Shown here one piece after another: positions 1 to 6,078 of a DNA stretch of 11,506 nucleotides. Origin of the DNA: a virus (lineage: Duplodnaviria > Heunggongvirae > Uroviricota > Caudoviricetes); the IMG/VR virus record IMGVR_UViG_2778261065_000012; one strand, written 5' to 3'. Positions within the stretch are counted from its first letter, which is position 1; each line of letters opens with the position of its first letter. The notes beneath the pieces were generated by a model, which was given only the letters and a program-made list of their open reading frames with translations, had not been told where the DNA came from and did no database searches. Position numbers and translations under genes: made by a program.

Positions 1-861
1 GTCCAGCTCCTGCTGGCGGATGACGCAGGCATTATGCTCGCAGAGATAAAACACGCTGGAGGGGTCATCCGGCGTCCATTTGAGGCCAAACGGCGTCTCT
101 TTGTCGCCAAATTTAAGATACTGCTCCTCCCCGCAATGCGGGCAGGCAACATGAAAACGCATAAAATGCAGGGATTCACTGGCTGCACGCTCAATCTGGC
201 AGGTGCCTCTCACTTTGGGCGTGGAGCCACGGATGGACTTTGGCCAGACCGAGCCTTCAATACGTTTGTCGCCAAGGAACGTCGGAGAGCCTTCCTGTTC
301 AATATCCTCATCAAAGGCAGCAAGTTCATCATAACCCGCCACATCCACCGACTTTTCACGGTAGTTTTTTGCCGCTTTACCGCCCAGGCACCAGAAGCCA
401 CGACCATTGGAAAAACGCTTCATAGTGAGCGTGTTATCCCGGTGCTTTTTGCCATACCACGGAGCCAGCGCCAGCAGCGACGGAATATCGCGGATGGTCG
501 GCTCAACGTGGGTTTTCATAAAGTTCTCGGCATCACCATCCGTCGGCAACCAGATAAGGGTGTTGCGCTGCTTATGCTCTATAAAGTAGGCATAAACACC
601 CAGCAGCATTTTGGAATAACCGACACGGGCAGACTTCACCACATTCACCTCACGGATGTAGTCGCTGCCCATCGCATTCATGATGGCCCGCTGAAAGGGC
701 AGTGTTTCCCAGCGCCCTTCCTGGTATGCGGATTCTTTCGGGAGATAGTAATTAGCATCCGCCCATTCAACGGCGGTCTGTGGCTCCGGCCTGAACAGTG
801 AGCGAAGCCCGGCGCGGACAAAATGCCGCAGCCTGTTAACCTGACTGTTCGATATATTCAC
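1..861 (-). CDS. A: Terminase large subunit (lambda gpA-like), N-terminal 287 codons; gene continues beyond the window start
   Basis: Minus-strand translation from GTG at 861 reads VNISNSQVNRLRHFVRAGLRSLFRPEPQTAVEWADANYYLPKESAYQEGRWETLPFQRAIMNAMGSDYIR... and stays open to position 1, matching the lambda gpA N-terminus from memory. Start overlaps the 3' end of Nu1 by 26 nt as in lambda. The start codon is GTG here. Confidence 0.9.
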   Translation of the reverse strand, partial: MNISNSQVNRLRHFVRAGLRSLFRPEPQTAVEWADANYYLPKESAYQEGRWETLPFQRAIMNAMGSDYIREVNVVKSARVGYSKMLLGVYAYFIEHKQRNTLIWLPTDGDAENFMKTHVEPTIRDIPSLLALAPWYGKKHRDNTLTMKRFSNGRGFWCLGGKAAKNYREKSVDVAGYDELAAFDEDIEQEGSPTFLGDKRIEGSVWPKSIRGSTPKVRGTCQIERAASESLHFMRFHVACPHCGEEQYLKFGDKETPFGLKWTPDDPSSVFYLCEHNACVIRQQELD

Positions 862-1381
862 TCAGCAACCCCGGTATCAGTTCATCCAGCGCGGCTGCTT
901 TGTTCATGGCTTTGATGATATCCCGTTTCAGGAAATCAACATGTCGGTTTTCCAGTTCCGGAAAACGCCGCTGCACCGACAGGGGGAGCCCGTCGAGAAT
1001 ACTGGCAATTTCACCTGCGATCCGCGACAACACGAAAGTACAGAATGCGGTTTCCACCACTTCAGCGGAGTCTCTGGCATTCTTCAGTTCCTGTGCGTCG
1101 GCCTGCGCACGCGTAAGTCGATGGCGTTCGTACTCAATAGTTCCTGGCTGGAGATCTGCCTCGCTGGCCTGCCGCAGTTCTTCAACCTCCCGGCGCAGCT
1201 TTTCGTTCTCAATTTCAGCATCCCTTTCGGCATACCATTTTATGACGGCGGCAGAGTCATAAAGCACCTCATTACCCTTGCCACCGCCTCGCAGAACGGG
1301 CATTCCCTGTTCCTGCCAGTTCTGAATGGTACGGATACTCGCACCGAAAATGTCAGCCAGCTGCTTTTTGTTGACTTCCAT
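836..1381 (-). CDS. nohD: Terminase small subunit Nu1 (181 aa)
   Basis: ORF-track protein MEVNKKQLADIFGASIRTIQNWQEQGMPVLRGGGKGNEVLYDSAAVIKWYAERD... is recognised as lambda Nu1 / DLP12 NohD; it lies next to cos and overlaps the A start. Confidence 0.93.
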   Translation of the reverse strand: MEVNKKQLADIFGASIRTIQNWQEQGMPVLRGGGKGNEVLYDSAAVIKWYAERDAEIENEKLRREVEELRQASEADLQPGTIEYERHRLTRAQADAQELKNARDSAEVVETAFCTFVLSRIAGEIASILDGLPLSVQRRFPELENRHVDFLKRDIIKAMNKAAALDELIPGLLSEYIEQSG

Positions 1382-1558
1382 TGTTCATTCCACGGCCAAA
1401 AACAGAGAAAGGAAACGACAAAGGCCCAAAAGTTCGTTTTCAGCACCTGTCGTTTCCTTTCTTTTCAGGGGGTATTTTAAATAAAAACATTAAGTTACGA
1501 CGAAGAAGAACGGAAACGCCTTAAACCGGAAAATTTTCATAAATAGCGAAAACCCGCG
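1382..1558. other. cosB region (terminase small-subunit and IHF binding region between Nu1 start and cosN)
   Basis: Position between the Nu1 start and cosN; the sequence is the reverse complement of the lambda left-end region as recalled (cggaaacgccttaaaccggaaaattttcataaatagcgaaaacccgcgaggtcgccgccc). Individual R and I1 sites were not mapped. Confidence 0.7.
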
Positions 1559-1570
1559 AGGTCGCCGCCC
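1559..1570. other. cosN, the 12-nt cohesive-end sequence (reverse complement of GGGCGGCGACCT)
   Basis: aggtcgccgccc at 1559-1570 is the exact reverse complement of the lambda cohesive end, flanked by lambda-like right-end sequence (cgtaacctgtcggatcgccggaaaggacccg). Confidence 0.85.
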
Positions 1571-1769
1571 CGTAACCTGTCGGATCGCCGGAAAGGACCC
1601 GAAAAATGATAATAATTATCATCTACATATCACAACGTGCATCTACGCCATCAAACCACGTCAAATAATCAATTATGACGCAGGTATCGTATTAATTGAT
1701 CTGCATCAACTTAACGTAAAAACAACTTCAGACAATACAAATCAGCGACACTGAATACGGGGCAACCTC

Positions 1770-1964
1770 ATGTCAACTAAGAACAGAACCCGCAGAACAA
1801 CAACCCGCAACATCCGCTTTCCTAACCAAATGATTGAACAAATTAACATCGCTCTTGAGCAAAAAGGGTCTGGGAATTTCTCAGCCTGGGTCATTGAAGC
1901 CTGCCGTCGGAGACTAACGTCAGAAAAGAGAGCATATACATCAATCCAAAGTGATGATGAATAA
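1770..1964 (+). CDS. Small basic protein (64 aa) with a ribbon-helix-helix-like pattern; function unknown
   Basis: ORF MSTKNRTRRTTTRNIRFPNQMIEQINIALEQKGSGNFSAWVIEACRRRL...; ATG at 1770. A basic N-terminal tail, a short strand (NIRFP) and two helix-like segments separated by a G-containing turn fit the RHH (CopG/Arc) pattern. Possibly the small conserved ORF found between bor and cos in lambdoid prophages, but that is from memory only. Confidence 0.55.
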   Translation: MSTKNRTRRTTTRNIRFPNQMIEQINIALEQKGSGNFSAWVIEACRRRLTSEKRAYTSIQSDDE

Positions 1965-2323
1965 ACATCCCGGTTTCTTCCACCATCGCACCGGAAAAGC
2001 GACTATGAGGGTAACCCTGCGTCTGTCAGCACAGTAAAACCCGGTGTGCATCGTTTTTGATTATTCCCGCACACTCACGCAGAAGGAATTCCCCGTCGGG
2101 CTACGGTCATGGTTAATGCGGGAATACGGCGACGATACAGCGCAGCTAAAAGGGTAATGGACAGAAAGAGCGGTTTATTTCATTCCACAGGATTCTGAGT
2201 GCCCCCCTCCTCCAATAGGCTGAGCATCCACCTATATAGTTTTAATTTTCATCAATCCATTTAACTATCGTTTAATTGTTGTCACATAGGATTCTGCCGT
2301 TTTTAACAATGCAGGATAATAAG

Positions 2324-2617
2324 ATGAAAAAAATGTTGTTTTCTGCCGCTCTGGCAATGCTTATTACAGGATGTGCTCAACAGACGTTTACTGTTGGAAA
2401 CAAACCGACAGCAGTAACACCAAAGGAAACCATCACCCATCACTTCTTCGTTTCGGGAATTGGACAGGAGAAAACTGTTGATGCAGCCAAAATTTGTGGC
2501 GGCGCAGAAAATGTTGTTAAAACAGAAACCCAGCAAACATTCGTAAATGGATTGCTCGGTTTTATTACTTTAGGCATTTATACTCCGCTGGAAGCGCGTG
2601 TGTATTGCTCACAATAA
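2324..2617 (+). CDS. borD: Bor outer-membrane lipoprotein (97 aa)
   Basis: MKKMLFSAALAMLITGCAQQTFTVGNKPTAVTPKETITHHFFVSGIGQEKTVDAAKICGG... with lipobox LITGC. ATG at 2324 preceded by aggataataag; the ORF-track start at 2276 is an upstream TTG. Confidence 0.92.
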   Translation: MKKMLFSAALAMLITGCAQQTFTVGNKPTAVTPKETITHHFFVSGIGQEKTVDAAKICGGAENVVKTETQQTFVNGLLGFITLGIYTPLEARVYCSQ

Positions 2618-2648
2618 TTGCATGAGTTGCCCATCGATATGGGCAGCT

Positions 2649-3110
2649 CTATCTGCACTGCTCATTAATATACTTCTGGGTTCCTTCCAGTTGTTTTTGC
2701 ATAGTGATCAGCCTCTCTCTGAGGGTGAAATAATCCCGTTCAGCGGTGTCTGCCAGTCGGGGGGAGGCTGCATTATCCACGCCGGAGGCGGTGGTGGCTT
2801 CACGCACTGACTGACAGACTGCTTTGATGTGCAACCGACGACGACCAGCGGCAACATCATCACGCAGAGCATCATTTTCAGCTTTCGCATCAGCTAACTC
2901 CTTCGTGTATTTTGCATCGAGCGCAGCAACATCACGCTGACGCATCTGCATGTCAGTAATTGCCGCGTTCGCCAGCTTCAGTTCTCTGGCATTTTTGTCG
3001 CGCTGGGCTTTGTAGGTAATGGCGTTATCACGGTAATGATTAACAGCCCATGACAGGCAGACGATGATGCAGATAACCAGAGCGGAGATAATCGCGGTTA
3101 CTCTGTTCAT
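2649..3110 (-). CDS. rzpD: Rz inner-membrane spanin (i-spanin), 153 aa
   Basis: [60 protein letters not shown]... is recognised as lambda/21 Rz. The ATG overlaps the endolysin stop (caATGa). Confidence 0.9.
2708..2890 (-). CDS. rzoD: Rz1 outer-membrane lipoprotein spanin (o-spanin), 60 aa, embedded in the +1 frame of Rz
   Basis: [60 protein letters not shown]: lipobox VVGC and a proline-rich segment, wholly inside Rz in another frame. Confidence 0.85.
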
Positions 3111-3604
3111 TGCTGACCCCACAAACAGATTTCACGCTCAATCTCACGACGAGTCATGAGACCTTTCCATTGCTTACCGCCAGCATATGTCCAGCGACGT
3201 AGCTGATCACATGCGCCTTTGATATCGCCCTGGTTTATTTTGCGAAGAAGCGTCGATGTTCTGAAATTGCCAGCACCCACGTTGTAAACGAATGAGTAAA
3301 GAGCGCCGCGCATTGTTTCCGGTATATCGACTTTGATGTACGGGTTAATTTGTCTGGCGACCGTGGCAAGGTCTTTATTCAGGAGGGCTTTGCATTCTGC
3401 TTTGGTATACGTTTTACCGAGCATGATGTCTTTTCCTGTATGCCCGTGACATACAGTCCATACACCAACAATATCTTTGTATGGTATGTAGCTGACACCT
3501 TCCAGACCATCGTTACCACTTGGGCCAGTGATTAACACTGATGCTATAGCAATTGCTCCGCCACCAATAGCAGCAGCAACGGCTTTTCGTAATGATGGAG
3601 GCAT
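3107..3604 (-). CDS. rrrD: SAR endolysin (phage-21-type lysozyme), 165 aa
   Basis: [57 protein letters not shown]...: Gly/Ala-rich signal-anchor-release N-terminus followed by a lysozyme catalytic region, recognised as phage 21 R / DLP12 RrrD. Start overlaps the S stop (TAATG). Confidence 0.9.
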
Positions 3605-3819
3605 TATTCACCTCTCGCAGCCTTGCGCTTATCTTCTTTAATCTTGAAATAAAGGTTTGTCAGGTACGTCAGCAGGCCAAATACCAGGCTACCCAGCACA
3701 CCTATTGCTGCCCACTGTGAGGGCGTGACTTTATCGAGCAGCTGTAAAAACCAGTAACCGGCACTACCTGCTGAGGTGCCATAGGCGACACCCGTTGTTA
3801 ACTTATCCATGGATTTCAT
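3604..3819 (-). CDS. essD: Pinholin, class II holin of the S21 type (71 aa, dual-start MKSM motif)
   Basis: [74 protein letters not shown] at 3819 preceded by gcgaggtgggg; a second in-frame Met at codon 4 gives the antiholin/holin dual start. The ORF-track start at 3864 is an upstream alternative codon. Confidence 0.88.
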
Positions 3820-4313
3820 AACCCCACCTCGCAGACAAAGCGGGTGTAAATTGAGGGAATACAACGTATCGCAAAAAAGCAGAAACGTAACAGACTCGGA
3901 GTCAGTGAATAACTCAGGTATTGAGTTATCAGCTAATATCGAGACTCAAAAAATGGAAAAACCAGCTCGACGGCGGGTTTAAGCTGTGTGACGAAGTAAC
4001 CACTCTTAACAGCATAACCAATTTTTTACGTACGTAAACCACTGAATGATATTTATGAGAATGCTACCGAGTGTTCAAAACACCACCACAAATACATAAG
4101 AAAACCTCAACAAATAACCAATAAATAATTTCCGGCGTTATTTTTAGTTAATTTAAATTAAACCACCGAATTATAGAACCCCCATAAATAACAGCCATTA
4201 ATATAAATTAGCTAATAGGTTTATTTTTGTTCAAATAAGAGCCATAAATAGGTTTCGATAGAAAAAGTTCAGATAAAAATAGAGATCTACTTCACAAATT
4301 AAATGAGAAACTA

Positions 4314-4340
4314 AAACTTACATCTTGAAATAATCACATT
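4314..4340 (+). promoter_or_regulatory. Candidate OmpR-box-like element in the porin upstream region
   Basis: aacttacatcttgaaataatcacattg resembles the ompC C1 OmpR box (TTTACATTTTGAAACATCTA, recalled) about 70-95 bp upstream of the porin ATG, within a roughly 540-bp AT-rich leader. By-eye resemblance only. Confidence 0.25.
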
Positions 4341-4407
4341 GATTAGATGAATATTTATCGCGCAGTGACATCATTTTTTAATAATAGTTCAAAAAAAAGG
4401 GCTCACG

Positions 4408-5505
4408 ATGAAAAAATTAACAGTGGCAATTTCTGCTGTAGCTGCATCAGTACTGATGGCGATGTCTGCTCAGGCAGCTGAAATTTATAATAAAGACAGT
4501 AACAAGCTGGATCTGTACGGGAAAGTTAATGCCAAGCACTACTTTTCCTCTAACGATGCAGATGATGGTGATACTACTTATGTTCGTCTGGGCTTCAAAG
4601 GCGAAACCCAAATCAACGATCAGCTGACTGGTTTCGGTCAGTGGGAATATGAATTCAAAGGCAACCGCGCTGAATCTCAAGGTTCCTCCAAAGACAAAAC
4701 CCGTCTTGCATTTGCAGGCCTGAAATTCGGTGACTACGGCTCAATCGATTACGGCCGTAACTACGGTGTAGCATACGACATCGGTGCGTGGACTGACGTT
4801 CTGCCAGAATTCGGTGGCGATACCTGGACCCAAACAGATGTGTTCATGACTGGTCGCACCACTGGTGTTGCAACCTATCGTAACAACGACTTCTTTGGTC
4901 TGGTTGATGGTCTGAACTTTGCTGCTCAGTACCAAGGCAAAAACGATCGTAGCGATTTCGATAACTACACCGAAGGTAACGGTGATGGCTTCGGTTTCTC
5001 TGCTACCTATGAATACGAAGGGTTCGGTATCGGTGCAACTTATGCGAAATCTGATCGTACCGACACTCAAGTTAATGCAGGGAAAGTTCTTCCTGAAGTA
5101 TTTGCTTCCGGTAAAAATGCAGAAGTTTGGGCCGCAGGTCTGAAATATGACGCTAACAACATTTACCTGGCCACTACCTATTCTGAAACCCAGAATATGA
5201 CTGTATTTGCTGATCACTTCGTTGCTAATAAAGCTCAAAACTTCGAAGCTGTTGCACAATATCAGTTCGATTTCGGTCTGCGTCCGTCCGTTGCTTACCT
5301 GCAATCTAAAGGTAAGGATCTTGGAGTATGGGGCGATCAGGACTTAGTCAAATATGTTGATGTAGGTGCAACCTATTACTTCAACAAAAATATGTCTACT
5401 TTCGTTGATTACAAAATCAACCTGCTTGACAAAAATGACTTCACTAAAGCACTCGGTGTAAGCACTGATGACATCGTTGCTGTAGGTCTGGTTTACCAGT
5501 TCTAA
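4408..5505 (+). CDS. nmpC: Outer-membrane general porin, NmpC/Lc (OmpD-family), intact 365 aa
   Basis: [40 protein letters not shown]...VAVGLVYQF: signal peptide, porin motifs ([21 protein letters not shown]-terminal YQF) and high-GC codon usage typical of a highly expressed gene. Convergent with the lysis genes, as in DLP12/PA-2. Confidence 0.92.
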
Positions 5506-5511
5506 TCTGAT

Positions 5512-5555
5512 TACGAAAAAGATATGTTGCGGGAGGCTTTGCCTCCCCAACATAT
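5512..5555 (-). terminator. Intrinsic terminator for minus-strand transcription (tR'-like, downstream of Q)
   Basis: Stem atatgttg(c)gggaggc / gcctccccaacatat (7 + 8 bp with one bulged C, 3-nt loop) at 5522-5555; on the minus strand it is followed directly by CTTTTTCG. On the plus strand no U-run follows. Confidence 0.5.
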
Positions 5556-5559
5556 AAGT

Positions 5560-5694
5560 GGCTCCCTCAAGCCACTTCCTTTAGGAGCACAACCTTGCTT
5601 CTAACTATATAAACCTTCTGTTATATATTACCCTTTATTTTTGGGGGCGTTGCAACGCCCCATTTTTAATAATTTTTAGTAAACAATTGGCATA
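5560..5694 (-). promoter_or_regulatory. Probable late promoter / Q-utilisation (pR'-qut-like) region
   Basis: Positional inference only: AT-rich interval immediately downstream of the Q gene and upstream of the minus-strand terminator. No confident -35/-10 pair could be assigned by eye. Confidence 0.3.
5644..5668 (+). terminator. Rho-independent terminator of the nmpC (and IpeX) transcript
   Basis: Perfect palindrome ggggcgttgcaacgcccc (9-bp GC-rich stem) at 5644-5661 followed by atttttaataattttt. Confidence 0.7.
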
Positions 5695-6078
5695 TTAATT
5701 AGAGTTATTAACAACGATATCCATCTCTAACCGGATATCTAATGCCATTAACATCCCTTCAATTATGCCCTCAGCCTTCTGTAACCTTTTCCCGATATAA
5801 CCATCAGAGCAGCAATGCTTACCTGCCAGTGACATGAATGTCATACCGACTACATAATAATCTACTAATAAATCGTGCAAATCGCTGTTGTTCTTTTTCA
5901 GACGGGCCATGCACCCGCAAATGATCATCGCGTCATCGTCACAACATTGCGGGCGAGATTTTACTTTTGAAGGAATTAATCCCTTAAAACCGGCGGCAAT
6001 GGACGACCAGGTCACATCTTCATGATTATTAGCCGCCCACGCTCCCCAACGCTCAAGAACCATCTGAATATCACGCAT
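5695..6078 (-). CDS. quuD: Late-gene antiterminator Q (127 aa, small Q family)
   Basis: [62 protein letters not shown]... has a Cys cluster and the expected position between the nin region and the late/lysis region. ATG at 6078 with GGAG 10 nt upstream; the ORF-track start at 6093 is TTG. Confidence 0.8.

Follow-up and report, generated by a model that had tools for sequence, protein, structure and literature searches.

How does late transcription reach the lysis genes of a lambdoid prophage in which a porin gene, read in the opposite direction, lies between those genes and the gene for the antiterminator Q? The question is raised by a sequence of 11,506 nt (IMG/VR virus record IMGVR_UViG_2778261065_000012, Caudoviricetes; hereafter, the window), in which the interval at positions 5506-5694 separates the porin stop codon from Q. 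A preliminary description, made from the sequence alone, took a long hairpin in this interval to be the tR' of a late promoter located after Q, from which Q-modified polymerase would have to read about 1.7 kb antisense through the porin. Our analysis leads to a different answer, namely, that a reverse-oriented porin moron lies between Q and its late cassette, with the interval as the 3' end of the moron, and that late transcription bypasses the porin, a reading to which we assign a probability of roughly 85%. This answer builds on direct observations of sequence features, homology, linkage to the porin, and RNA ends in K-12. The literature already describes IpeX, the lysis promoter region of DLP12, and the pR' family of Q933W.

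RESULTS

The window carries the late-control region of a DLP12/PA-2-type prophage

The 2.9 kb around the interval were 100% identical to an E. coli chromosome, the annotation of which gives the gene order, in window orientation, as rzpD/rrrD/essD on the minus strand, the porin on the plus strand, and quuD/ylcG/rusA on the minus strand. DLP12 of K-12 is collinear with the window and differs by an IS5 element in nmpC. Phages Turner and mEp332, which have an intact porin, match this region at 99 to 100% identity. The window is the late-control region of a lambdoid prophage of the DLP12/PA-2 (DLP12/qsr') type with an intact porin gene, and the positions previously given for the porin, for quuD, and for the start of essD at 3819 were confirmed.

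4408-5505, plus strand: porin gene (nmpC/lc/OmpD-like), intact; Pfam Porin_1, E = 1.8e-156; RefSeq porin
5695-6078, minus strand: quuD, Q antiterminator of the Q21/Q933W family, 127 amino acids (aa); PF06530, E = 8.5e-54
3604-3819, minus strand: essD, phage 21-type holin, the first late (lysis) gene; PF04971 and annotation

QuuD matched the Q21 structures 6P18 and 6JNX at E = 7.6e-8 and was 78% identical to Q of 933W-type Stx phage. The Q and porin genes are convergent, and each of the two terminator-like elements between them adjoins the stop codon of the other gene.

The interval is the porin 3' UTR, or IpeX region

Between the two stop codons we located the following elements.

5506-5672, plus strand: 3' UTR of the porin (nmpC/lc type), IpeX region, with four local hairpins plus the terminator
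5522-5555: hairpin A, which forms in porin-sense (plus) RNA and is terminator-like on the minus strand; 15 pairs, bulged C5530, loop TTT
5516-5520, minus strand: T5 run after hairpin A, one C between (C-TTTTT, 5521-5516)
5644-5667, plus strand: hairpin B and U5, intrinsic terminator of the porin/IpeX transcript, with 3' ends among the listed Term-seq entries

Castillo-Keller et al. (2006) reportedly placed ipeX between the nmpC stop codon and a predicted terminator, with the same sequence found after lc in PA-2. In the window, 167 nt extend from the porin stop codon to the end of the terminator tail, equal to the published length of IpeX (PMC12197685), and the placement between a stop codon and a rho-independent terminator agrees both with that article and with the definition just given. 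The interval was 97.9% identical to the sequence downstream of lc in PA-2 (J02580.1) and 97 to 98% identical to K-12 and 434B. Searches of Rfam at gathering thresholds and at E values up to 10 assigned no family to the interval and returned chance-level matches only. We conclude that 5506-5694 is the nmpC/lc 3' UTR, i.e., IpeX, plus an intrinsic terminator; the earlier suggestion that IpeX is encoded here is supported by the location at the 3' end of nmpC in DLP12, by the identity to PA-2, and by the length. Place, length, and type of element are thus the same as for the IpeX of DLP12 nmpC and PA-2 lc. The difference from K-12 is that the porin gene here is intact and without IS5, and the RNA is presumably made from the porin promoter, as in PA-2. 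IpeX represses ompC and ompF (PMC5069750). The 167 nt of 5506-5672 folded at -62.4 kcal/mol on the plus strand (z = -7.9) and at -59.2 kcal/mol on the minus strand (z = -5.3).

RNA ends published for K-12 were projected onto the window. K-12 aligns to the interval without indels, and window position x corresponds to position 574529 + (5505 - x) of the K-12 v3 sequence. The sources were the listed entries of the Term-seq data of Adams et al. 2021 (PMC7815308) and of the Cappable-seq data of Ettwiller et al. 2016, the latter in U00096.2 coordinates (PMC4782308). Porin-sense 3' ends are listed at 574367 and 574366, i.e., at window positions 5667 and 5668, at the last U of the tract after hairpin B, with Term-seq scores of 46656 and 66408, and a further porin-sense 3' end at 574476 corresponds to position 5558, 3 nt past the stem of hairpin A. 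The 61-nt sequences printed with these entries confirm the coordinate mapping. The proposal that hairpin B ends the porin transcript is borne out by the ends at 5667/5668, and the plus strand of the interval would accordingly be transcribed as the 3' UTR of the porin mRNA, with IpeX ending at hairpin B and its U5.

An additional porin-sense 3' end, at about 5703 (v3 574331) and barely within the 3' end of quuD, is found in the bicyclomycin (Rho) table of Adams et al. From this entry, Rho appears to stop those transcripts that read past the IpeX terminator while they run antisense to Q.

Among related loci, the interval is about 94 to 100% identical, and the whole block from Q to essD falls to 83 to 93% in many of them. 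The higher conservation of the 3' UTR fits selection on the untranslated RNA itself. The minus strand also has a 69-aa open reading frame (ORF) at 5344-5553, with its start codon inside hairpin A, that the PA-2 record of 1986 labels "ORF1" and that is annotated in 434B as a hypothetical gene. We rejected it, since only 34 of 82 related loci keep the frame whole and most of the remainder truncate it to 12 or 43 aa; it is very unlikely to be a gene.

Two hairpins of opposite polarity lie in the IpeX region

Both hairpins of the preliminary description, which had assigned them opposite polarity, are present as it described them. Hairpin A begins 16 nt after the porin stop codon and pairs 5522-5529 with 5548-5555 and 5531-5537 with 5541-5547. 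Its folding energy was -23.3 kcal/mol for the plus strand and -22.7 kcal/mol for the minus strand (z of about -6.3), and none of 200 shuffled sequences was as stable; the geometry is real and far beyond chance. The sequence also confirms that T5 follows its 15-pair stem only on the minus strand; past the stem, the plus strand continues as AAGTGG, without a T-run. In minus-strand RNA, the foot of the stem is rich in A-U pairs, and a single C intervenes before the U-run. In about half of the related loci, the T5 is reduced to T4 (CTTTTAG). Variation among 82 related loci falls mostly in the bulge and loop, with a few rare variants that carry stem changes, and the stem substitutions that keep pairing on one strand only, through G-U pairs, are split evenly between the plus strand (4) and the minus strand (4), which favors the RNA of neither strand as the one under selection.

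Hairpin B (5644-5661) consists of GGGGCGT and ACGCCCC, 7 pairs around the loop TGCA, and is followed on the plus strand by A-TTTTT (5662-5667). Its own stability is modest (-13.9 kcal/mol; z = -2.9). A consensus terminator scan returned 3 sites in 3 kb where 2.6 are expected by chance. The scan is therefore at chance level, and the status of hairpin B as a terminator rests on the experimental 3' end instead; hairpin A was missed by the same scan because of its bulge. Neither hairpin has the form of a bidirectional terminator, in which one hairpin has an A-tract upstream and a T-tract downstream. Hairpin A has the upstream A-tract only. Hairpin B is T-rich on both sides on the plus strand, so that the minus strand reads CAAAAAT after its stem.

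A scan of the minus strand of the interval for sigma-70 promoters matching at least 9 of 12 consensus positions found none, and a relaxed scan gave only 8/12 matches with poor spacing. The best candidate on the minus strand of the interval, TTGCAA-N19-TAATAT, was dismissed because of its 19-nt spacer and the position of its -35 element in the loop of hairpin B, a loop that varies among relatives.

The interval is inherited with the porin and not with Q

A porin gene adjoins the interval in all 36 phage records and all 82 related loci that contain it. Phages of the Lambda_ev087 type have a Q gene that is 91% identical at the nucleotide level, carry other cargo in place of a porin, and lack the interval; their homology to the window stops at position 5719, within the final codons of Q. 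At the opposite edge, the sequence shared with Stx phages, SfII, and phiP27 starts with the -35 element of the late promoter pR'. These two breaks delimit a porin moron of about 4041-5718, of which the interval forms the 3' end. The order of Q, inserted cargo, and late cassette recurs in SfII, where the cargo is two reverse ORFs, and in phiP27, where it is a GIY-YIG gene. Separation of Q from its site is tolerated because Q acts in trans.

Phage Lambda_ev087 itself shows a different arrangement. Its Q protein is 86% identical to QuuD, yet the TAAGAGTGGTTAC cassette (see below) is absent between its Q and S genes. Directly after Q, at 3340-3482 on the minus strand of that phage's own sequence, lie a promoter-like TTGCTG-N17-TAATGT and a terminator, CCAGCC/GGCTGG-T8, and the next gene after this terminator is a reverse-oriented blc lipocalin gene. 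If these elements act as their sequence predicts, late transcription in Lambda_ev087 would run antisense through a moron, which would imply that the site specificity of Q has switched among close relatives.

A pR' homolog lies between the porin and essD

We compared the 588-bp stretch from the porin start to essD with phage genomes. About 290 Stx-phage records matched the window at 4039-3957 on the minus strand, and in these records the match lies at the very end of their Q genes. In OP797663.1 (Stx phage 06-3462), the matching stretch is annotated as pR' (TTTACG-N16-TATCAT) and a rho-independent terminator. The corresponding elements of the window are as follows.

4011-4038, minus strand: pR' homolog; -35 TTTACG at 4038-4033, 16-nt spacer, -10 TATGCT at 4016-4011, predicted +1 at A4004
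4008-3996, minus strand: conserved initial transcribed region TAAGAGTGGTTAC, common to DLP12, Stx phage, SfII, and phiP27
3977-3957, minus strand: tR'-like hairpin; CCCGC at 3977-3973 with GCTGG at 3966-3962, then T5 at 3961-3957

In the alignment with Stx phage, the -35 and -10 elements, TAAGAGTGGTTAC, and the hairpin with its T-run are all shared. The cassette occurs as a single copy in the window (4038-3957, minus strand), about 185 nt upstream of essD. A search for TAAGAGTGGTTAC and its flanks across the window found neither in the interval 5506-5694. The cassette is nearly invariant in 81 related DLP12-type loci, even where its flanks vary, and is about 77% identical in Stx phages.

The pR' of the Sakai Stx phages has been mapped by dRNA-seq by Sy et al. 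(PMC7547250), who also found that the short Q clade correlates with a pR'-derived RNA, StxS, with its 3' end at +258. In OP797663.1, 258 nt counted from the A located 7 nt past TATCAT reach the second annotated terminator, and the annotated promoter thus agrees with the map of Sy et al. The stretch 4038-3957 combines a homologous promoter, a start region, a hairpin with a T-run, and, in K-12, a start site, and is the predicted late cassette of this prophage. By analogy with Q933W and its cassette, QuuD probably loads at 4038-4004.

Among the Q-sense start sites listed by Cappable-seq for K-12 are v2 576081 and 576452. An offset of 777 between v2 and v3 coordinates was inferred from the six nearby start sites, all of which then fall on purines. 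With this offset, v2 576452 is window position A4004, 7 nt past TATGCT, which is the predicted +1 of pR'; the site is weak, with a score of 1.7. The second site, v2 576081 (score 90), corresponds to position 4374, which is 7 nt past a TATTAT (4386-4381) and 34 nt from the porin ATG, towards essD. It is overlapped by a sigmaE-like sequence, GAACTA-N16-TCACT (4390-4364, minus strand), and may be the published RpoE-dependent lysis promoter of DLP12. The Cappable-seq entries list no Q-sense start site in the Q-porin interval (v2 prefixes 5735 to 5737). Likewise, the listed Term-seq entries contain no Q-sense 3' end in the interval (K-12 5745xx), where Q is poorly expressed, and a 3' end at the hairpin after pR' (v3 of about 577278) was not found among them. 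The missing Q-sense ends and starts in the interval are weak negative evidence, given that nmpC is split by IS5 in K-12, the prophage is defective, and Q is barely expressed.

Two further K-12 start sites in the listed Cappable-seq entries lie antisense inside nmpC, at v2 575093 and 575453 (window positions of about 5000 to 5370), with scores of 16.8 and 2.8. Some antisense transcription of the porin thus exists independently of Q.

Published work on DLP12 bears on the same region. Phage 434B forms plaques with the K-12 DLP12 segment comprising Q, the late promoter, and the lysis genes, including nmpC::IS5 (PMC9119081). A reporter fragment for the DLP12 lysis promoter (PMC7918800), which we mapped through its primers, spans about 4480-3696, all on the essD side of the porin. 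The published numbering of this fragment, "-121 to +650," is ambiguous and would fit a start site near 4359 or, read as -650/+121, the essD ATG.

The tR'-like hairpin itself is polymorphic. The window has GCTGG, with T at 3964, where K-12, SfII, Stx phage, and phiP27 have GCGGG, and the two alleles are split about 41 to 40 among the 81 related loci. GCTGG breaks the middle pair of the 5-bp G+C stem, which folded at -8.6 kcal/mol (z = -0.3) versus -14.1 kcal/mol in K-12. This weak allele might allow expression of the lysis genes independently of Q.

DISCUSSION

In the reading that we favor, the Q-dependent unit would consist of pR' at 4038-4011, a +1 at about 4004, the start region, and the hairpin with its T-run at 3977-3957, and would lead straight into essD at 3819. 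Given that this unit starts between the porin and essD, late transcription need not cross the porin. The preliminary description had itself pointed to a late promoter elsewhere, for example between nmpC and S, as the case in which antisense read-through would not be needed, and a pR' homolog was found at just such a place, 4038-4011. Three of its claims are therefore not upheld. Hairpin A is very probably not the tR' of the late promoter, because the window has its single cassette homolog at 4038-3957 and because the interval is coinherited with the porin. The antisense route of about 1.7 kb is not needed with both the pR' homolog and the listed K-12 start site on the essD side. The predicted interference between porin expression and late transcription has no basis with the pR' homolog placed past the porin, where the two would not collide. 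Read-through from the early-right nin-Q operon, especially by N-modified polymerase, could presumably still cross the porin antisense. As for hairpin A, it may block 3'-to-5' trimming of the porin mRNA after cleavage, or it may mark a processing boundary at which the downstream RNA is released.

The opposing model, which places a late promoter between Q and hairpin A, assigns the role of tR' to hairpin A with its T5, and has Q-modified polymerase read through antisense across the porin and its leader, draws on the great stability of hairpin A, on its C-T5 on the minus strand only, on the position of the late promoter directly after Q in lambda, 21, 82, and 933W, and on the promoter-like sequence and terminator that directly follow the close Q homolog of Lambda_ev087. 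We consider it extremely improbable given that the cognate cassette is found once in the window and elsewhere, that the K-12 start site lies at this cassette with none listed in the interval, that the interval lacks a good promoter and follows the porin in inheritance, that roughly half of the relatives have a T-run of just T4, and that at both hairpins the listed 3' ends belong to porin-sense RNA. A different role for hairpin A on the minus strand is that it could stop unmodified read-out from Q, so that transcripts of the nin-Q operon also terminate there and the Q mRNA ends at about 5514 with a 3' UTR fully antisense to IpeX. The stable stem with its C-U5 tail has a suitable geometry, no second site resembling a terminator is present on the minus strand from the Q stop codon to the porin, and the convergent arrangement, with each terminator-like element beside the stop codon of the other gene, would suit this function. 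We nevertheless judge it somewhat unlikely, since the base of the stem is A-U rich and parted from the U-run by a C, the U-run has 4 nt in about half of the relatives, and no Q-sense 3' end is listed near K-12 5745xx, although expression of Q is low there; N- or Q-modified polymerase would ignore the hairpin anyway. Such termination is compatible with our preferred reading and would shield the porin from antisense read-in during lysogeny. It would also leave the Q 3' UTR (5694 to about 5514) and IpeX (5506-5667) perfectly complementary over about 150 nt. A sense-antisense switch between the two could then link a lysogenic-conversion gene to the lytic decision: abundant porin/IpeX RNA in the lysogen could pair with stray Q mRNA and destabilize it, guarding against accidental firing of the late genes, and the surge of Q transcripts upon induction could conversely titrate both IpeX and the porin mRNA. 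We regard this switch as improbable.

The remaining alternative concerns which promoter drives the lysis genes. They could be transcribed mainly from host-controlled promoters near the porin start codon, with Q in a minor role, rather than from the pR' homolog. Candidates are the K-12 start at 4374 with its -10 TATTAT and the sigmaE-like sequence at 4390-4364; in the listed Cappable-seq entries the score at v2 576081 is 90 versus 1.7 at the pR' homolog, and PMC7918800 cites RpoE control of the cassette and describes a cloned fragment that starts at window position 4480. However, the hairpin and T-run at 3977-3957 would still lie in the path of transcripts from these promoters, Q control of the cassette is reported in the same literature, and the "-121/+650" numbering fits -650/+121 relative to the essD ATG as well. 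This account appears to us rather unlikely. A host-controlled promoter would in any case still lie between the porin and essD, and the model of a late promoter directly after Q is not rescued either way.

Several known arrangements are close to the one proposed here. In Stx phages (933W, Sakai, and H-19B), the promoter hexamers, their spacing, the start region, and the first hairpin with its T-run are homologous to those of the window, but the -35 element overlaps the end of Q, whereas here a reverse-oriented porin moron of 1.65 kb lies between Q and the -35 element. Neither the second terminator nor the remainder of the 258-nt StxS region is present in the window, and its hairpin carries the weakening G-to-T change. 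The logic is the same as that of lambda pR', 6S RNA, and tR', in which a constitutive promoter yields a short terminated RNA and Q permits read-through into S, R, and Rz; the Q of lambda, however, belongs to a different family from the PF06530 protein found here, there is no sequence similarity, and hairpin A lies outside this late unit. Like other reverse-oriented morons of lambdoid phages (lc, bor, and blc), the porin moron is self-contained, with its own promoter region and terminator, and sits at a module junction. SfII and phiP27 carry their cargo at the same Q/pR' junction. The porin moron, lying upstream of pR', escapes late transcription, whereas the reverse-oriented blc of Lambda_ev087 apparently lies downstream of its predicted pR'.

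In summary, our analysis leaves two small leads, the part that hairpin A may play in the formation of the porin mRNA 3' end and the common allele that weakens the hairpin after pR'. The annotation of this locus should not put tR' beside the porin stop codon. The correction to the earlier picture is that, in a widespread type of E. coli prophage, the porin would sit upstream of the Q-controlled late promoter, so that porin/IpeX expression in the lysogen and late lytic transcription would not collide. The Q/pR' junction, as also seen in SfII and phiP27, would then be a recurrent insertion point for cargo that leaves Q control intact.
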